The notes below the pieces were generated by a model. That model did not search any database, was not told the origin of the DNA, and saw only the letters and a list, made by a program, of their open reading frames with translations. Positions 24,765-44,860 of a stretch of 64,000 bases of DNA are shown here, in pieces (position 1 is the stretch's first letter; the number at the start of each line of letters is the position of its first letter). Source of the stretch: a virus; IMG/VR virus record IMGVR_UViG_3300025778_000010, positions 32,001-96,000 of that record; one strand, given 5' to 3'. The position numbers were made by a program, and so were the translations under genes.

Positions 24765-24820
24765 GTCACAATCACGGCACGGCGTGTCGAGTTGATTTTG
24801 TCAGCCCTATCTGATAGACT
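24755..24820 (+). promoter_or_regulatory. composite promoter: CRP-type box, GACAC box, -35, PafBC-type element, extended -10
   Basis: TGTGG-N6-TCACA; CGGCGTGTCG; TTGATT-17-TAGACT with TGTCAG-N10-TAGACT. Confidence 0.8.
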
Positions 24821-24850
24821 TCCAGTCATACAAATTAAATAAAGAAAAAT

Positions 24851-24924
24851 CCTAGTTGAGCCTCTGAGCCTTAGCAAATAATCCGAAAGGTGAGCCTAAG
24901 CAAATAAGAGCAAATAACACTAGG
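24851..24924 (+). ncRNA. structured leader RNA with three identical internal loops
   Basis: Nested stems CCUAGU/ACUAGG, CUC/GAG, CUUAG/CUAAG and CC-GAAA-GG separated by UGAGC/CAAAUAA loops. Confidence 0.7.
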
Positions 24925-24975
24925 CAAGGAAAGATAGATAAAAGGTTTATCTATAAAAAAAGAAAGGTGACTAAT

Positions 24976-25122
24976 ATGTCATACTCATTCGATAATAATA
25001 ATAAAGACCGTTGGTCAGAACTAGCAGACAATTATCAATCAATGCTAGATGAACTAGCAGAATCAGAATCAGAATCTGTATTTATCCCCGTACCTGCGTT
25101 TGATGTAGACGAGGTGCTCTAA
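24976..25122 (+). CDS. small acidic early protein (48 aa)
   Basis: Read manually: MSYSFDNNNKDRWSELADNYQSMLDELAESESES...; GAAAGGTG RBS. Confidence 0.65.
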   Translation: MSYSFDNNNKDRWSELADNYQSMLDELAESESESVFIPVPAFDVDEVL

Positions 25123-25215
25123 TGACTATAAATAGTTTAACTCTCATTTCACTATTGCTAGTGTCGTACCTATCTGCTAAACTACTAACCGATAAAGAAT
25201 GGGGAAAGAATAAAA

Positions 25216-25422
25216 ATGAAAACTAAGATTATCGTACTAGGATTAGCACTCGCTCTAATTCCCGCCGTTGCTAACGCTCGTGGCACAAGCCATCATTCTT
25301 ATAGCCTGTCTAGTGTAGGTCGCTACACTTATCACTATCACAAGCCTAGCCATATCTATTGCCCATATCAAGGCTGTAAAAAATCGTTCTCTAGTTTCAC
25401 TAGCACTAGTGGCGGAAACTAA
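25216..25422 (+). CDS. small secreted His-rich protein
   Basis: Signal peptide (ANA-R), His/Tyr-rich, one Cys pair. Confidence 0.55.
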   Translation: MKTKIIVLGLALALIPAVANARGTSHHSYSLSSVGRYTYHYHKPSHIYCPYQGCKKSFSSFTSTSGGN

Positions 25423-25444
25423 TGTCAGTGGTCTATGGTAGACT
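25423..25444 (+). promoter_or_regulatory. PafBC-type promoter without canonical -35
   Basis: TGTCAG-N10-TAGACT. Confidence 0.7.
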
Positions 25445-25479
25445 ACTATTAACAACAACAAGAAAAGGAAAATAAATAA

Positions 25480-25644
25480 ATGACAATCGAAAATCGTACT
25501 TACCAAATCGGTGACCTATTCACCACACAACGCTCAAAGGTAACAGGAACAATTAAGGAAATTGTAAATGTAAAGCCTAACCAATCTCGTGTGAAGTTGG
25601 AAGTTGACGGCAAAGACCGCTGGACAACTGTCACAATCAAGTAA
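25480..25644 (+). CDS. small beta-barrel-like protein, paralog 1
   Basis: MTIENRTYQIGDLFTTQRSKVTG...; AAAGGA RBS. Confidence 0.75.
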   Translation: MTIENRTYQIGDLFTTQRSKVTGTIKEIVNVKPNQSRVKLEVDGKDRWTTVTIK

Positions 25645-25663
25645 AGTTTAGCAAATCGCTAAA

Positions 25664-25691
25664 CGACCTGAGCAAGTCGGAAAAAGGCTCA
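25664..25691 (+). ncRNA. H-type pseudoknot motif, copy 1
   Basis: CGAC-CUGAGCAA-GUCG...GCUCA; same architecture at 48342-48375. Confidence 0.5.
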
Positions 25692-25723
25692 ACTAATACC
25701 CAACAAAGAAAAGGAAAAAAAGA

Positions 25724-25894
25724 ATGACACTACACGGATACACTTATCAAATCGGAGATTTATTCACCACATCAAAGACAGGCGTAACTGGACGAATTAA
25801 CTCGTTCTCTCCTGTATCAAATAAAGTAACTCGTGTTGGTCTAACTTTAGCAAATGGCTCAAAGCGTATTGCTATGGTAAAGACAACGAAGTAA
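25724..25894 (+). CDS. small beta-barrel-like protein, paralog 2
   Basis: MTLHGYTYQIGDLFTTSKTGVTG...; AAAGGA RBS. Confidence 0.75.
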   Translation: MTLHGYTYQIGDLFTTSKTGVTGRINSFSPVSNKVTRVGLTLANGSKRIAMVKTTK

Positions 25895-25975
25895 AAATAA
25901 AATAAGTTTAGGCGGGACTGCACACTAATAACGACACTCCCGCCTAATTCACAAAACACGAAAGGAAAACTAATT

Positions 25976-26158
25976 ATGTCAATGTCACGCAAGGACTATG
26001 TTTCAACCGCTGAAATTATTAATTCTTATGCTTCAGAAATTAAACTCGAAGTGCTAGAAGATCTAGTAAATGATTTCATCGAAATGTTCGCATCAGATAA
26101 CGAGCGATTCAATAGCGATAGATTTTGGGACGAGTGTTTTAAAAACACAAATCACTAA
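25976..26158 (+). CDS. hypothetical early protein
   Basis: GAAAGGA RBS; MSRKDY...DNERFNSDRF. Confidence 0.75.
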   Translation: MSMSRKDYVSTAEIINSYASEIKLEVLEDLVNDFIEMFASDNERFNSDRFWDECFKNTNH

Positions 26159-26172
26159 ATAAAAATAAAAGC

Positions 26173-26205
26173 TTAGGCGTAGCAAAATTGCTACGCCTAA
26201 TTTTA
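26173..26205 (+). terminator. intrinsic terminator
   Basis: TTAGGCGTAGCAA-AA-TTGCTACGCCTAA followed by TTTT. Confidence 0.75.
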
Positions 26206-26314
26206 TTAAAAAATAAAAAAAAATAACGGCGTGTCGGCTTGACAAAGCCGAGCCGAGGGGCTGGCCCAAAAAATCGGACATTTACGGCATTTAAGACATT
26301 CGATATACACAGAT

Positions 26315-26335
26315 TTATCCACAAGCTGTGGATTA
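26315..26335. promoter_or_regulatory. inverted pair of DnaA-box-like sites
   Basis: TTATCCACA (perfect) and TGTGGATTA (1 mismatch). Confidence 0.5.
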
Positions 26336-26364
26336 TTGTTCATCTTAAATTAACCTAAAACTTA

Positions 26365-26404
26365 CGGCGTGTCGCTTGATTTTTTCGATTTTATCTGATA
26401 AACT
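26365..26404 (+). promoter_or_regulatory. GACAC-box promoter, diverged copy of the 24780 promoter
   Basis: CGGCGTGTCG; TTGATT-17-TAAACT. Confidence 0.7.
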
Positions 26405-26437
26405 TCCAGTTATAAAATTAAATAAAGATATAAAAAA

Positions 26438-26453
26438 TGTGATGTACTTCACA
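26438..26453. promoter_or_regulatory. perfect CRP/GlxR-type palindrome
   Basis: AAA-TGTGA-TGTACT-TCACA. Confidence 0.65.
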
Positions 26454-26562
26454 AAGTACACGCTCCAAATATTGAGACTACTCCCCAGTATACTCGATAG
26501 TAGCGAAAAAGTATGTTAAACTAGCGATAGTTAAACAGTTAAAAAAGAAAGGTGGTCATAAA

Positions 26563-26862
26563 ATGGCTACACTAGAAGTAAAAGTAAATGATAGTTTTGT
26601 TCCGCTTGAGTATGCTCCAAGCGATGTAAAGATTTCTCTTGAGTGGGCGTTAATGAATAATGCTCCAATGGTAGTAAAATCCACTACCCCCGCCGTTGTT
26701 CGTGTTTGCAAAGTTTGCGAATATGCACACGAAGGTTTGTATTGCACAAATTGTTTCACGGGTGAGCGTGTAAATTGCTCCCCTGCTGGCAAGTTTAATA
26801 AATGGTCAAAAGTGATGCGAATCACACCAACTACTTGCAACAAATCTCGGCGTGTCGCCTAG
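26563..26862 (+). CDS. Cys-rich hypothetical early protein
   Basis: GAAAGGTGG RBS; CKVC and CTNC. Confidence 0.65.
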   Translation: MATLEVKVNDSFVPLEYAPSDVKISLEWALMNNAPMVVKSTTPAVVRVCKVCEYAHEGLYCTNCFTGERVNCSPAGKFNKWSKVMRITPTTCNKSRRVA

Positions 26863-26888
26863 ATAATGTCAGTATAATCTGATATAAT
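26848..26888 (+). promoter_or_regulatory. GACAC-box plus PafBC-type promoter
   Basis: CGGCGTGTCG; TAGATA-17-TATAAT; TGTCAG-N10-TATAAT. Confidence 0.8.
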
Positions 26889-26922
26889 TCCAACTATCAA
26901 CAAAAAGAAAGGTGGCAACTTA

Positions 26923-27147
26923 ATGCTAATCTCAGAAGCCTTAGAAGGCAAATATGTAAAGTCCTCAAAAGGACAAGGCATAATCCAATATGCAGATTTC
27001 CGAAAGGATATGCACCACTCTACCCCTGAGGGTTATCTTGCTTATGCTTGCAAGGTTCGCCCTACTTATAACCCTGAAGTGCATAAGTTTATTCCAGAAG
27101 ATTTCTGGACAACAATTTATGTCGGATTGGATAGTGAATTACTATGA
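26923..27147 (+). CDS. hypothetical early protein
   Basis: GAAAGGTGG RBS. Confidence 0.7.
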   Translation: MLISEALEGKYVKSSKGQGIIQYADFRKDMHHSTPEGYLAYACKVRPTYNPEVHKFIPEDFWTTIYVGLDSELL

Positions 27148-27350
27148 CAATTAAAATTGGTGGGCTAGGGCAGACAATTTCTGCCTATTGCCCAGTATGC
27201 TCTCAAAAGATGACCCATATGTGTATCGCTACACTTGGAACGGGTAAAACAATTCGCTATGAGTGGCAATGCCAGCCTTGCGAATTATCTCTAAAGTCTG
27301 ACTCAACAGGCTATGCTCATCTACTCACAGAAATGGCTTACTATGTCTGA
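27144..27350 (+). CDS. zinc-ribbon hypothetical protein
   Basis: CPVC and CQPC; ATGA overlap. Confidence 0.65.
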   Translation: MTIKIGGLGQTISAYCPVCSQKMTHMCIATLGTGKTIRYEWQCQPCELSLKSDSTGYAHLLTEMAYYV

Positions 27351-27459
27351 TAAAATTTTCATATGTGATGAATGTGATACCCTTGCCACAATGTCAGTGC
27401 AAGGTGATACAATAACTATAAATAAATGTAAGTGCTTAACTTTAGAATGGAGCAACTAA
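27343..27459 (+). CDS. 38-aa Cys-rich protein with an embedded PafBC-type promoter
   Basis: MSDKIFICDECDTLATMSVQGDTITINKCKC...; TGTCAG-N10-TACAAT at 27392-27413. Confidence 0.5.
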   Translation: MSDKIFICDECDTLATMSVQGDTITINKCKCLTLEWSN

Positions 27460-27665
27460 TGTACAAAATTACAACAACCTATGACGGAAATCCCGTCCCA
27501 CACTCTATTCACTCTTATGCTGATGCACTTGATGCGTTTGACTCGTTTGGTCGTTGCACCGATTGGGGATTTGCAGATGAATATGCAACCTACAATTTAA
27601 CTTTACCTGATGGAAAAATGTACACAAAGATTTTTTATCGTAGCGGAAAAGTTGGTGGAAAGTAA
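27459..27665 (+). CDS. hypothetical early protein
   Basis: GGAG RBS, start MYKITT. Confidence 0.7.
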   Translation: MYKITTTYDGNPVPHSIHSYADALDAFDSFGRCTDWGFADEYATYNLTLPDGKMYTKIFYRSGKVGGK

Positions 27666-27962
27666 TGGCAACAACAATTCACCTTGGCGGAATAGAATCA
27701 GAATGTGAGAAGTGTCGTGAAATTGCGGGAGAAAATAATGAATAAAGTAAATCGTGTTCAAGAGTTGCGGAGATCAAATGCTGCAACTCCAATTCGTAAC
27801 AAGAAAAAATATACACGTAAAAATAAATATAAAAATAAATTTGAATAAATATTTATAACATTGCATAGCTATGCGACACGCCCGAGTGCGGCTGGCCCCT
27901 GTCAACTCGACACGCCGATTACGGGGTGTGATTTTAATCTCCCAAATACTGGCGGGTACAAC

Positions 27963-27991
27963 TAGATAATGTCAGTGGGTTCTGCTATACT
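27963..27991 (+). promoter_or_regulatory. PafBC-type promoter
   Basis: TAGATA-17-TATACT; TGTCAG-N10-TATACT. Confidence 0.8.
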
Positions 27992-28021
27992 TCCGATATC
28001 AAGAAAAGAAAGGGGCATTAA

Positions 28022-28249
28022 ATGTCTACTGTTGCCACATATTGCAAAGATTGCAATAAGCGTTTATCTGATATTTCAGTATATGACGCTCCCTATACTT
28101 CCGATTCTACTTGCTGGGAGTGTATCTTCAAGTCCTGCGATAACTGCTATGGTCAAGGAATTACTGGATGGGTATCTCCAGATGGTGATTTTGATTTTGA
28201 TTATTGCGAGTGCAACCCACTTTGCCTAACACTAGAAGAGGTCAAATAA
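28022..28249 (+). CDS. Cys-rich zinc-finger protein
   Basis: GAAAGGGG RBS; three CxxC and one CxC. Confidence 0.7.
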   Translation: MSTVATYCKDCNKRLSDISVYDAPYTSDSTCWECIFKSCDNCYGQGITGWVSPDGDFDFDYCECNPLCLTLEEVK

Positions 28250-28440
28250 TGACTAATGAAACTATTTTTGAAGTAGCCTGCCTATACTATGAAGTATGCG
28301 GTACAAGCGAAGTATTCTACTCTGAAGAAGAGTATGATATCTATGGCGATGATTATGTCTGCCCTGAGTGCTATTATCAGATGGCGGAAATGGAGTCTGA
28401 TTCCTTCCCGCTATCTTTAGAATATGATGAGGGGGAATAA
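28249..28440 (+). CDS. small acidic zinc-binding protein
   Basis: GAGG RBS, start MTNETI; D/E/Y-rich; CPEC. Confidence 0.65.
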   Translation: MTNETIFEVACLYYEVCGTSEVFYSEEEYDIYGDDYVCPECYYQMAEMESDSFPLSLEYDEGE

Positions 28441-28518
28441 TGTCTGACAAGTCTGCTCAAGATCTATTTAATGAAATGGATACCCTTTGGGATAATTTCA
28501 AGAAAGCCACATGGCAAA

Positions 28519-28540
28519 TGTCAGTGGTGCCTGCTACAAT
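28519..28540 (+). promoter_or_regulatory. PafBC-type promoter
   Basis: TGTCAG-N10-TACAAT. Confidence 0.75.
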
Positions 28541-28563
28541 AACATCCTTAACCCAACCAAAGA

Positions 28564-29049
28564 ATGGAAACTAACATGACAACAACCCTAACCCGTGGCG
28601 AAGCCAAAGATACAATTGATTTCGCAATTGAACAATTTATCAACGAGATTGAAGTCTCTGATGATATGCTATTAACGATTACCTATGCCGTAAATAATGA
28701 CTTGCAGATTCGTGATTACTTCCTTGGGCTCCCGTCCGATTATGGTATGCAGGTATGCGTTGATTTTGTCAACTATCTTTCACGAGTAACTAATGCACGA
28801 GAAGGATATGCATATGACACAATTTCTGCAATGTATCATATTGAACAAGGCAACACAGACTTGGCTAAGTCTCTGCTAGAAATTGCAGAAAAAAATAATC
28901 CTGATTATAATCTCATGAAACTTGCGAAGAGAATTCTTTCAGCAGGTTGGCCAGGTTCCGAATTAACTAGAATGCGTAATGAATTGCATTCTTCAGTTGT
29001 GGATACTATCACCGAAGAGCCAAATATTTTAATTGAAGAGGTGGCGTAA
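28564..29049 (+). CDS. helical hypothetical protein (DUF4192-like)
   Basis: DLQIRDYFLG...PDYNLMKL resembles the actinobacterial DUF4192 C-part. Confidence 0.5.
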   Translation: METNMTTTLTRGEAKDTIDFAIEQFINEIEVSDDMLLTITYAVNNDLQIRDYFLGLPSDYGMQVCVDFVNYLSRVTNAREGYAYDTISAMYHIEQGNTDLAKSLLEIAEKNNPDYNLMKLAKRILSAGWPGSELTRMRNELHSSVVDTITEEPNILIEEVA

Positions 29050-29207
29050 TGTCAGCACCATATGCAACAATTAACGGCGTTGAGGTTCATGAGGACCTCA
29101 ACGGCTATGCCGTGGTCATGAAGAATGGCAAGGTAATTAAAAAGTATACCAACTCAAGAGAAGACGCATTAGGCAAAGCAATGCACTATGCACAGGAGAT
29201 TAAATAA
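29049..29207 (+). CDS. hypothetical 52-aa protein
   Basis: Read manually: MSAPYATINGVEVHED...; GAGGTGG RBS. Confidence 0.6.
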   Translation: MSAPYATINGVEVHEDLNGYAVVMKNGKVIKKYTNSREDALGKAMHYAQEIK

Positions 29208-29423
29208 ATGGCAAAGCATCCACCAGTCAACAGTGCACAATGGCATTCTGTATTTGCAGATGATCAATGCAAAATTTATCAAGACGGTAACGATGATATT
29301 TTTTTCAAGGTCATGATCAAGGGCCAACGTGTTAAATATTTTTATAATGAAACAGCTCATAGCGACGTTGCACGTTACTGCAGCGACGAGCTTGGAATTA
29401 GCTATTGGTCCGTATTAAATTAA
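29208..29423 (+). CDS. hypothetical early protein
   Basis: AGGAG RBS. Confidence 0.7.
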   Translation: MAKHPPVNSAQWHSVFADDQCKIYQDGNDDIFFKVMIKGQRVKYFYNETAHSDVARYCSDELGISYWSVLN

Positions 29424-29684
29424 TTTAACTTGGGTGGGGAATAAAATGCAAGCGGTAGCATATGTATTGGTCTATGGATCTGCATTCGCTATCGCATGCA
29501 TTTTTTATTTTATATTTTCTAAAAAAGATTTTTAAATGCGGTGTGTCGAGTTGACAACCGTTGATTTTTGGGCTGGCCCGTCAAGCCGACACGCCGTTTA
29601 CGGGGCGTGATTTTAATCACATGGAATGGGCGGGGACAAAACGGACATATCAGACAAATCATTATTTAACTTAGGCTTTACGGG

Positions 29685-29714
29685 TAGACAGATGTCAGCC
29701 TTATCTGCTAGAAT
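29685..29714 (+). promoter_or_regulatory. PafBC-type promoter
   Basis: TAGACA-18-TAGAAT; TGTCAG-N10-TAGAAT. Confidence 0.8.
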
Positions 29715-29745
29715 AGGCATACATTAACAGAAAGAAGGAAAAAAT

Positions 29746-30786
29746 ATGACTAACCCAATGTCACAGGTTCATCGCTCAGAAGTTGAGGATGGTTCTGTAT
29801 CTCTTGCTGTATCACTTCGCACAAATCCTGCATGGCACTCTTTTGCTAACAAGGTATTTGCTAAGGATGAGCAAGTCACAACCGCACAAATGCTAGATGC
29901 TGCTAAACTCTCAAATTGGAATGTTTCTCTTGAGTCTGTTTCAGATTTATTGCCAGACAACTATGATTCTGTTAGCGAGAATTTTTTGGTTGTTCGTGAT
30001 AACCCTTACACAGCAGGACAAAAAGATGTTCTCTCAGTTGTAGGCTCACGCTATAAGGCTGTTCAGAATGAAGAACTCTTTTCTTTTGCAGATAACCTAC
30101 ATGATGGAAACCCTGATGTAAATTGGGAAAGTGCAGGTTCTCTAAAGAATGGTCGTGTTGTATTTGGCACAATGTCAATTCCCCGCACTATGGTTCTTGA
30201 CCCTAATGGTGCTAATGACACTACCAATCTTTATCTCGTAGTTTACACTTCACACGATGGTTCAGTTGCGGTTCAATCTGCAATTACCCCTGTTCGTGTT
30301 ATGTGTCAAAACACTCTTAATTTCGCTATGCGTAAGGCTAAGCAATCTTTCAAGATTCGCCACACTCAGACAGTAGATGGAAAAATTGCTGCTGCTCGTG
30401 AGACTCTAGGTCTAACTCTTGCGTACATGGATGAATTCGAAACACAAGCAAAAGAACTTTTCTCTCGTGAAGTGACAAATGCTAAGTTTAGCGAAATCAT
30501 TAACAAGATGTATCCTAAGCCAGAGGCAGATGTTAAGGGTTCAATCAAGAAGTGGGAAAACAAGGTTGTTCTGCTTGATGACCTTTACCATAACTCTCCT
30601 ACTAATGCTAATATCAAGGGTACAGCATGGGGCGTTGTAAATGCTCTAACCGAACGCCTTGATTACTATCGCACAGCCCGCAAGGGAAACAGCGATTCGC
30701 TAATGGCAGGTGCAAGCGGATTTGACCCTGTTATCACAGCAGAAAAAAATAAAATTGTTAAGCAGGTTCTTGCACTTACCGCTTAA
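29746..30786 (+). CDS. DUF932 family phage/plasmid protein
   Basis: PAWH, Y-x-x-VQN, ESAGSLKNGR, SHDGS, TPVRVMCQNTL, GTAWGVVNALTE. Confidence 0.85.
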   Translation: MTNPMSQVHRSEVEDGSVSLAVSLRTNPAWHSFANKVFAKDEQVTTAQMLDAAKLSNWNVSLESVSDLLPDNYDSVSENFLVVRDNPYTAGQKDVLSVVGSRYKAVQNEELFSFADNLHDGNPDVNWESAGSLKNGRVVFGTMSIPRTMVLDPNGANDTTNLYLVVYTSHDGSVAVQSAITPVRVMCQNTLNFAMRKAKQSFKIRHTQTVDGKIAAARETLGLTLAYMDEFETQAKELFSREVTNAKFSEIINKMYPKPEADVKGSIKKWENKVVLLDDLYHNSPTNANIKGTAWGVVNALTERLDYYRTARKGNSDSLMAGASGFDPVITAEKNKIVKQVLALTA

Positions 30787-30792
30787 TAAATT

Positions 30793-30814
30793 GTGAGGGG
30801 CGAAAGCCCCTCAC
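30793..30814 (+). terminator. GC-rich hairpin with GAAA loop (terminator or processing site)
   Basis: GTGAGGGGC-GAAA-GCCCCTCAC. Confidence 0.6.
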
Positions 30815-30821
30815 CTCTCTT

Positions 30822-30895
30822 GATTCCATAGATCAATTGGTTAGATCGCTACCCTGTCACGGTAGAGGTTGCGGGTTCAAGTCCCGTTGGAATCG
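30822..30895 (+). tRNA. tRNA-Asp(GTC)
   Basis: Cloverleaf; anticodon arm CTACC-CTGTCAC-GGTAG; no encoded CCA. Confidence 0.93.
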
Positions 30896-31045
30896 CAAAG
30901 TTTAAATGGTCATCACGGCGTGTCGAGTTGACAAAACAGCTGGGGCGGGCTGGCCCCATAAAATCCATAATGTCAAGTCTTTACGGATGTGATTATAAAC
31001 ACATTTACGGATGACCGATATGTCCGATTTGTCTGCGTGTCTAAA

Positions 31046-31074
31046 TTGATTACTCATGGGTAACTTGCTATAAT
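31046..31074 (+). promoter_or_regulatory. SigA promoter, near-leaderless
   Basis: TTGATT-17-TATAAT with TG extension; ATG 8 nt downstream. Confidence 0.7.
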
Positions 31075-31082
31075 ACTCACCT

Positions 31083-31724
31083 ATGGAAAATGTAAAAGAA
31101 ACTTGGTTCAAATGGGATTATGTATGCCCAAATTGCGATGCACATATTGAGATGACTATTAAATCTAATGGTCATCCACATAGCGAGATTTGTTCTAAAT
31201 GCTATGAGCGTCTAACTCTGATGTCAGTGGTAGATGCTACAATATACCCAACTCAAAAGAAAGAAGAACAAACTATGGAAACAACAATCGCTGAACTTTA
31301 TAACCCAAATATGTTGGTTACATATAAGAAGATTACTGATGGTAATACTGAATATATTACTGATAAGGTAACTGATATTGAGTGGGCTCTTGCTCAATCC
31401 CGCCGTAACTATGAGAGCCTTACAGAGCAACAAAATAATTGGTATCTCAAAGAGTCAAAACTACGCACTTTGCTAAATGATGTATTTCACGATTCAGAAG
31501 ACCAAGACACACTTGAAAAAATTGCTGATATTTTTGATGTTCCACTAACTAAGGAAATCGAAGTAACCGCTTGGGTCAATGTCAATATGACTATCGAAGT
31601 TGATATGCGTGAAGGCGAATATGATGTTGAAGACCTTGTTCGCAATAATCTCACAGTAGATGCCTATGGTGGAGAAATCACAGTTCACGACTTTGATGTA
31701 GACCGAGTAGAGGAGCAATACTAA
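31083..31724 (+). CDS. hypothetical protein: N-terminal Zn ribbon and likely second in-frame start at 31275
   Basis: CPNC and CSKC; internal TGTCAG-N10-TACAAT at 31222-31243 before METT. Confidence 0.7.
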   Translation: MENVKETWFKWDYVCPNCDAHIEMTIKSNGHPHSEICSKCYERLTLMSVVDATIYPTQKKEEQTMETTIAELYNPNMLVTYKKITDGNTEYITDKVTDIEWALAQSRRNYESLTEQQNNWYLKESKLRTLLNDVFHDSEDQDTLEKIADIFDVPLTKEIEVTAWVNVNMTIEVDMREGEYDVEDLVRNNLTVDAYGGEITVHDFDVDRVEEQY

Positions 31725-31996
31725 TGGCAGTAGCAGTTATTGAAGTCCCGTCCCCTGCTCGTATGGCGAACGGGATTAGCAAATGCCTAACCGCTGGAAT
31801 TGAATATGAGATGCTGGGTGGGATGCAGGTAGAGATTACTTGTGCTGATGAGATGAAGTTAGCTAGAATAATTACAGCCTTTGGCGGTAAAATCCTAAGT
31901 GCTTTTAATCATAAACCAATCACACCAGATGCCCCTAAGCACGAAGTCCAATATGCTAGGACACATAGACCAATTCAGACACGCCGAAAGAATTGA
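31724..31996 (+). CDS. hypothetical protein
   Basis: GAGGAG RBS, TAATG overlap. Confidence 0.65.
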   Translation: MAVAVIEVPSPARMANGISKCLTAGIEYEMLGGMQVEITCADEMKLARIITAFGGKILSAFNHKPITPDAPKHEVQYARTHRPIQTRRKN

Positions 31997-44559: not shown

Positions 44560-44860
44560 GAATTTTCTTTAACTGACTCCATATTTCTGGGTCTTTGTGT
44601 GAGTTATTTTGTTTATCTATACGACCTAAGTCCATAAAAATACCGCCTCGTACACCAAACTCTTTATTTGCTACACCTTCTTTATGACATTGTTTAATTA
44701 CTGGACAATGTAAACAAACTTGATCAATTTGTTTGGCAAGCTCTTTATCTGATTCATAATCATCATAAAACCAATTAATTGACATATTTGTGCATGCTGC
44801 AAGGTGATACCATTTGATATCAACTTCATCAATTCCTAAATGACTAAATAAACCTGGCAT
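44534..44860 (-). CDS. whiB: WhiB family Fe-S transcription factor
   Basis: W...AAC...VCLHCPVIKQC...FGVRGG (four Cys plus a GVWGG-like turn). Confidence 0.85.
   Translation of the reverse strand: MPGLFSHLGIDEVDIKWYHLAACTNMSINWFYDDYESDKELAKQIDQVCLHCPVIKQCHKEGVANKEFGVRGGIFMDLGRIDKQNNSHKDPEIWSQLKKIHGKNILHS

Follow-up and report, generated by a model that had tools for sequence, protein, structure and literature searches.

The window analysed here is a stretch of 64,000 nucleotides from a viral genome in IMG/VR (record IMGVR_UViG_3300025778_000010), corresponding to bases 32001-96000 of the 108,356-bp record, for which the CheckV completeness is 100%; the element in question is a GC-rich word, GGCTGGCCC, that is found in four intergenic modules in a region of small early genes. 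Open reading frames (ORFs) of at least 60 amino acids, obtained by a greedy call on the whole genome (-31788 to 76027 in window coordinates), lie nearly all on the minus strand, and plus-strand ORFs are present only in a short block at 20.4-22.8 kb and in an 11-kb island of small genes at about 24.5-35.7 kb. All four modules are inside this island, between early operons, and each is placed after the end of the preceding operon and is closed by a promoter. The phage encodes a WhiB protein (PF02467, 37.6 bits, window positions 44639-44812), and because Wbl proteins are exclusive to Actinobacteria according to a passage in PMC6282962, the host of this uncultured lake phage is probably an actinobacterium. 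The phage itself is probably lytic, since a repressor homologue, an integrase and HTH_3 were all without a match in the genome.

Four modules in the early-gene island

The word GGCTGGCCC was found at 26259, 27890, 29571 and 30948, in each case on the plus strand and between genes, as an earlier note on this DNA had observed in reporting four same-orientation copies in intergenic modules. The chance expectation is 0.05 copies per window and none of 100 shuffles reached four, and over the whole genome the word occurs nowhere beyond these four sites and not at all on the reverse strand. The boxes GGCGTGTC/GACACGCC that accompany it number nine in the genome, all within window positions 24780-31986.

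Module 1 starts just past an intrinsic terminator at the end of the upstream operon (26173-26200, plus strand; a 12-bp stem and then a T run). A GGCGTGTC box with a consensus TTGACA (26227-26244, plus strand) makes up a -10-less 'W unit', with no TAnnnT at 17±1 bp, and the word (26259-26267, plus strand) begins 14 bp past the TTGACA. Further downstream are an inverted pair of DnaA-box-like 9-mers, TTATCCACA and TGTGGATTA (26315-26335), which are kept in two of the relatives described below (L001 and L002), and a promoter unit consisting of TTACGG, the box and TTGATT-N17-TAAACT with TGn (26362-26404, plus strand, with the promoter at 26376-26404). Copies of TGTGGATAA are present in the modules of many relatives.

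In module 2 a reversed CGGGCGTGTC-type box (27874-27883, minus strand) precedes the word (27890-27898, plus strand), and a reversed box+TTGACA unit (27900-27917, minus strand) begins 1 bp past it. TTACGG, a CRP-like half-site and a promoter, TGTCAG-N10-TATACT, complete the module (27919-27991, plus strand, with the promoter at 27963-27991), and the promoter is of the PafBC type by the motif tGTCgg(N10)tA(N3)T (PMC8635444). One class of modules has TGCATA..TATGCA palindromes ahead of the word, at 27861-27875 of the window, 7080-7110 of L004, 7105-7128 of L015 and 7155-7177 of L027.

Module 3 contains the box GGTGTGTC with TTGACA (29539-29556, plus strand), the word 14 bp past TTGACA (29571-29579, plus strand) and a reversed box+TTGAC unit (29580-29597, minus strand) that abuts the word and pairs inversely with the first unit; the inverted GACAC/TTGAC pair around the core that had been described before is therefore present, at 29539-29597. 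The remainder (29598-29714, plus strand) holds TTACGG, a CRP-like box at 29606-29621, CGGACA repeats and a promoter at 29685-29714, with its PafBC-type motif at 29693-29714. Module 4 lies just downstream of a terminator-like hairpin (30793-30814) and a transfer RNA (tRNA) gene, tRNA-Asp (30822-30896), both on the plus strand. It has a box with TTGACA (30916-30933, plus strand), the word 14 bp past TTGACA (30948-30956, plus strand) and then, over 30971-31074 on the plus strand, TGTCAAG, two copies of TTACGG, a CRP-like box at 30988-31003 and the promoter TTGATT-N17-TATAAT at 31046-31074. The tRNA-Asp gene is thus wedged between terminator and module, and in L001, L002 and L027 the orthologous module likewise comes after this tRNA end.

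Among the parts that the earlier note listed as common to the modules, the box, TTGACA or TGTCAA, TTACGG and the downstream promoter were found throughout, but the CRP-like box was less regular. TGTGA-N6-TCACA is present with one mismatch in modules 3 and 4, module 2 has only a half-site, and the copy of module 1 lies at 26438, past the promoter, with the DnaA-box-like pair in its usual place. With at most one mismatch allowed, the window has 12 sites of this palindrome where 3.1 are expected, and they cluster at 20.5-35.6 kb; such sites are also kept in relatives, and on this evidence the module part is a predicted site of the CRP/GlxR type. At 29590-29609 and at 27911-27930 a 6-bp hairpin, CACGCC..GGCGTG, arises from the reversed box together with the beginning of the CRP-like box; its loop contains TTACGG and its tail is T-rich. 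Relatives have a perfect inverted pair, ACACGCC-gtttac-GGCGTGT.

The -10 slot and its words in related phages

Early promoters of the island consist of the box, 1-2 nt, TTGATT or TAGATA, 17 nt and TAnnnT, with TGn at +15 to +17, so that the extended -10 spans +15 to +23. The word units consist of the box, 2-3 nt, the consensus TTGACA, 14 nt and the word, which fills this +15 to +23 slot. In modules 1, 3 and 4 the distance from TTGACA to the start of GGCTGGCCC is exactly 14 bp, a spacing that the earlier note did not mention, and none of these three units has the TAnnnT -10 of a SigA-type promoter. Their 14-bp spacers and the sequences after the word are unrelated, yet the 9-10 bp of the word are identical.

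The same division was found when non-redundant units were counted over all loci of the phage family. A TAnnnT at 17±1 was present in 3 of 142 box+TTGACA units, compared to 69 of 83 units in which the box is joined to another hexamer, whereas a slot with at least 7 of 9 positions G+C was found in 40 of the 142 and in none of the 83. Since units with a perfect -35 almost always lack a -10, the box+TTGACA units are promoter-shaped but not ordinary promoters. The split between -10-less box+TTGACA and -10-bearing box+TTGATT amounts to a testable rule of promoter construction. Wordless promoters with the box and TTGATT, the promoter class of the box unit, lie on the plus strand at 24780-24820 and 26848-26888, and the PafBC consensus fits two of the four module promoters and two more in the island (24797, 26865, 27970 and 29693).

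The relatives compared are 80 IMG/VR loci, labelled L001 onwards, that were retrieved with the DUF945-type gene between modules 3 and 4 (53-92% amino-acid identity); association comparisons took in 81 loci. None of the near relatives carries GGCTGGCCC, but all of them have the box and the same module layout, namely a terminator or the box with CTTGACA, about 14 bp, a GC-rich word, then the CGGGCGTGTC box or a reversed box+TTGACA, TTACG, TGTGA-N6-TCACA, CGGACA repeats and a promoter. Of the core, whose conservation in relatives the earlier note took as a test of its ideas, the sequence is not conserved, whereas the position and the architecture are.

Every genome has a GC-rich word of its own, in many cases a palindrome, in 4-9 modules: GGGCCGACCC in L004 and L013, GGGYCGRCCC in L009, GGCGCGCC in L014 and L015, GGGGCCCC in L027, GCCGACGC in L020, GCTGGCGC in L016, GGGTCGACCC in L001, TGCGCA in L011 and GGCCCAGG in L010. 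With the box masked, a GC-rich 8-mer was common to 27% of module pairs within a genome and to 3.7% between genomes. Three near-complete relatives have no copy of their own word outside the early block, and the block that holds the word sites is about 5-11 kb long. The polarity claimed for the core holds in this genome, but relatives carry words in both orientations, among them L009, L010, L034 and L038.

The change from word to word can be followed in closely related loci and, together with the identity of the words between unrelated spacers in the window, suggests that selection acts on the word itself. When module 4 of L016 is aligned with its counterpart in the window, the two words differ by one base (GCTGGCGC vs GCTGGCCC), and either form is invariant among the 4-5 copies that its own genome has. 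The sister phages L013 and L015 have flanks of 84-94% nucleotide identity, and every orthologous module has GGCCGACCCGCAC in one and GGCGCGCCCCCGAGG in the other. In L002, the closest in gene content, the flanks of modules 2-4 are kept and the word is replaced by GGGTCGAC(A/C)C, and the box-TTGACA-word unit of module 1 is absent altogether. The present analysis adds two points: every genome has a private central word, and this word takes up the -10 slot of a unit shaped like a promoter.

The N14-15 geometry recurs with other words in L001, L002, L009, L011, L016, L018, L020, L026, L035 and L037. L001 and L009 have a symmetric arrangement, TTGACA-N14-word-N14-TGTCAA, around a palindromic or near-palindromic word, and because the two N14 arms are not mutually complementary, a protein assembly on duplex DNA is favoured over a long hairpin. 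A scan of IMG/VR for TTGACA-N14-GGCTGGCCC returned no contig of this architecture, although records near the window's own were possibly hidden; the 72 matches obtained were all single, chance-like or coding, in unrelated and mostly GC-richer contigs, and were set aside. The element in a distant clade (about 67% identity) is GCCCGCA, frequently as CTGGCCCGCA, and therefore the 8-mer GCTGGCCC recurs there. A factor shared by this clade and the window was considered on that account, but the idea is weakened by the presence of GCTGGCCC in only 1-2 copies per genome, GCCCGCA being the clade's constant word.

Other features were seen in and around the modules. Palindromes of the form TCGAAC-N4-GTTCGA, SOS-box-like and presumably sites for LexA, stand directly upstream of the word in L016 (about 2690-2705) and L020 (about 2195-2210), and also in L023, L026 and L035. 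A second GC-rich motif, GGGCGGGA/TCCCGCCC, occurs 5-8 times per locus in many of L001-L039, outside the word slot. The first gene after module 1 (26563-26862) encodes a 99-aa CxxC...CxxC protein with a basic tail, whose sole homologue among the 80 loci is in L022 (71%), and most relatives carry a family 21 gene at this place. The gene after module 4 (31083-31724) encodes a protein of 213 aa with an N-terminal zinc-ribbon region, which matched PF06044 (DpnI/Dam-replacing) with 24.2 bits, below the cut-off of 26.7.

What may read the word

The four modules are control regions of successive early operons, composed of host-type sites and a private word. We propose that this word is recognised, in a stoperator-like manner, by a trans-acting factor with sequence specificity, and we give this reading a probability of about 0.45. 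Each module follows the preceding terminator, strings together motifs shaped like sites of host regulators, and ends in an early promoter; the putative host-type motifs are the GACAC-type GGCGTGTC box, the CRP-like box, DnaA-like boxes and a promoter of the PafBC type or with -35 and extended -10. The word lies in a promoter-shaped but -10-less unit, putatively for docking, on the exact 9 bp at which early promoters have TGnTAnnnT. The factor, probably phage-encoded, could be docked beside the box/-35-type site, where host RNA polymerase or factors of the WhiA/WhiB type would sit, and by reading the word at all early operons together it would co-ordinate them, probably as a timed shut-off or switch. 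Its specificity may have diverged between lineages, as in the repressor/stoperator pairs of cluster A mycobacteriophages. A narrower version, in which each lineage of these lake actinophages has a private 8-10-bp word in the -10 slot at all its early operons, read by a fast-evolving phage factor acting with host RNA polymerase, is possible though rather doubtful. Such a factor might repress, which would amount to private, stoperator-like control in a phage that is lytic, or it might confer specificity, so that the -10-less units would become a later class of promoter.

The ideas of the earlier note on the modules and their core fared unequally. Units integrating several host regulators agree in part with what was found, in that the modules are conserved composite control regions ahead of early promoters, with host-site-shaped motifs, in about 80 related contigs. 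Of its three ideas for the core, a phage-protein site is the best fit to a word that is private, identical across modules, confined to the early block and at a fixed distance from TTGACA. The word is most likely a lineage-specific protein recognition site and not a nick or crossover point.

Several observations weigh against a dedicated factor. The local order of parts in module 2 differs and the N14 geometry is broken there. The words of L002 and L018 are reversed GACAC boxes, and the GCCCGCA element of the distant clade resembles the arm of a hairpin or palindrome with compensating changes; therefore, the slot may hold more than one kind of element. The modules of L004 and L009 are identical over 30-85 bp, which indicates that module copying or gene conversion occurs. 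A reader protein was sought by an all-against-all comparison of 4,363 ORFs from the 81 loci, in which families were scored for association with the class of word, and no early-island protein family tracks the word. The best candidates, family 3 (window 26923-27147), family 9 (31083-31724), family 12 and the N terminus of the DUF945 protein, were rejected, as their trees or alignments do not follow it. Among 40 proteins annotated by Pfam or PHROGs there is no DNA-binding protein other than WhiB, and Pfam scans of the genome gave no match to HTH_3 or sigma region 2.

The word may instead be a copy of a site recognised by the host, whose factor, either a regulator or a specificity of the modification/restriction type, would vary from one host strain or species to another. 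This is unlikely, although it would account for the lack of a phage reader among the early-island families and the annotated proteins, and it agrees with the host-site shape of all other module parts, with the recurrence of GCTGGCCC in modules of the distant clade, and with the many words that are short GC-rich palindromes, like type II recognition sites. However, six contigs of a single sample, 3300032236 (L006, L007, L016, L018, L031 and L035), have six words, a point tempered by the fact that their hosts may differ too, and the sister phages L013 and L015 have different words. A fixed 14-bp phase to TTGACA would also be unexpected for modification or restriction sites.

Of equally low probability is an explanation without any reader, in which the slot needs only to be GC-rich, as an unmeltable 'anti -10', a clamp on a decoy promoter or a hairpin arm, and the word is kept uniform by duplication or gene conversion. 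The long identities in L004 and L009 are of the kind that it predicts, and between L013 and L015 the word block is swapped as a 13-15-nt unit beside a conserved box; the general shape of the words, GGG-N2-6-CCC, the compensating arms of the distant clade and the coincidence of the slot with the -10 position are also in its favour. It is difficult to reconcile with modules 1, 3 and 4 of the window, where the word is identical over 9-10 bp, because both of its flanks are unrelated and there is thus no homology for conversion between these modules. Nor does it explain the single-base difference between L016 and the window, fixed in all copies of both genomes, or the predicted folds of the four modules, which pair the word differently each time (z-scores of -0.6 to -3.1).

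It is quite unlikely that the box-TTGACA-N14-word units are promoters of a later class, in which the word stands in for the -10 and a phage-specific factor on the host RNA polymerase recognises it. The word does overlay the extended -10 slot exactly, all four words (4/4) are oriented along transcription, and the symmetric units of L001 and L009 with their palindromic words would serve both strands. But the genome has no detectable sigma region 2 domain, a GC-rich -10 would be difficult to melt, module 2 has no -35 at the correct place, and a normal promoter follows 70-120 bp after each unit.

The remaining two ideas of the earlier note, that the core serves for programmed nicking or modification or as a crossover point for shuffling early-gene cassettes, are together highly improbable. 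It is true that cassette content and order between the modules vary among relatives, that modules 1 and 4 are places of sharp breaks in homology with relatives, that the module 1 unit is missing from the orthologous L002 module, and that shuffling between repeated regulatory cassettes has a precedent in the PeSL cassettes of T4-type phages (PMC2839356). In the alignments with relatives, however, breakpoints were found at many gene boundaries and not specially at the cores, with equally strong ones at the module-free boundaries 25400, 25900, 27300, 27600 and 29200. Nine base pairs are too short for homologous exchange, and because the words differ between relatives they cannot supply homology between phages, so that a crossover role for the word is unlikely. 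Support for a nick or modification site is likewise lacking on the side of the enzymes: Pfam scans of the genome gave no match to C5 methylase (PF00145), N6/N4 methylase (PF01555), HNH nuclease (PF01844), integrase or resolvase, although divergent enzymes could be missed.

Some simpler candidates were rejected. A hairpin or terminator containing the word is at odds with the inconsistent folds of the four modules, which have no common stem; a terminator-like hit involving the word was obtained in module 4 only, on the minus strand, and Rfam matched nothing but the tRNA. Sigma-54 and extracytoplasmic function (ECF)-type promoters were dismissed by eye, there being no conserved -12 GC and no ECF-type -35. 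The word begins GCTGG, as does E. coli Chi, but a Chi-like polar site agrees neither with a constant distance from TTGACA nor with the words of relatives, which have mixed orientations. A neutral repeat like a miniature inverted-repeat transposable element (MITE) was rejected on the grounds that the spacers differ while the word does not.

If a trans-acting factor does read the word, a large and abundant group of uncultured freshwater phages would time its early genes by two layers of control, the first made up of common sites copied from host master regulators and the second of a private word that changes with the lineage. If the word is indeed private in this sense, related phages in the same lake, or even in the same cell, would not cross-regulate. 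The co-evolution of operator and repressor would then be extended from temperate mycobacteriophages to large, apparently lytic environmental phages of actinobacteria, and comparison of words with genomes offers a simple way to search for a new family of proteins that bind specific DNA sequences or associate with the polymerase.

Comparison with known control systems

A search of the literature found no paper that describes these modules. The closest known parallel comes from cluster A mycobacteriophages (L5, Bxb1, TipsytheTRex) and their operator/stoperator sets, in which many copies of a short, often asymmetric intergenic word are likewise found in an actinobacteriophage. Stoperator motifs are genome-specific, tracking the repressor and diverging together with it (PMC6550527, PMC9283540), and uniformity within a genome with divergence between related genomes was found here as well. 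The L5 stoperator also overlaps a -35-like TCAAG/TTGACA sequence. In contrast to stoperators, which are genome-wide and have one orientation to transcription, the words described here number 4-9 sites in one early island, and several relatives show both orientations. The word also stands at a fixed phase inside a larger mosaic module, and neither a repressor homologue, an integrase or HTH_3 nor an early-island family that tracks the word was found with it.

The PeSL cassettes of T4-type phages are similar in another respect, being repeated terminator-plus-promoter cassettes that separate small variable early genes (PMC2839356, PMC4122927), with gene content shuffled between relatives. The island has the same ingredients, with terminators at 26173 and 30793, a promoter after each module and variable cassettes. 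However, a PeSL is a plain sigma-70 promoter with a stem-loop and is itself the recombination substrate, whereas the modules are longer mosaics with a private word, at which breakpoints are not concentrated.

WhiA/WhiB-activated promoters have a GACAC-containing box directly upstream of the -35 (PMC10243135), as do the units described here. The known sites of WhiA/WhiB and PafBC promoters would explain the box and the promoters but not the word, and the box here, a predicted site, is a longer conserved 10-mer. Multi-copy operators beside early promoters are also present in another actinophage, the temperate phage phiC31, whose conserved inverted repeats (CIRs) are 17-bp palindromes bound by a known repressor; the words described here are 8-10 bp, and no reader for them was found among the early-island families and the annotated proteins. 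Taken together, the word and its modules resemble a multi-copy operator on the one hand and regulatory cassettes on the other, yet they do not fit the stoperator family, with its cognate repressor and genome-wide sites, and probably do not belong to the PeSL family either.

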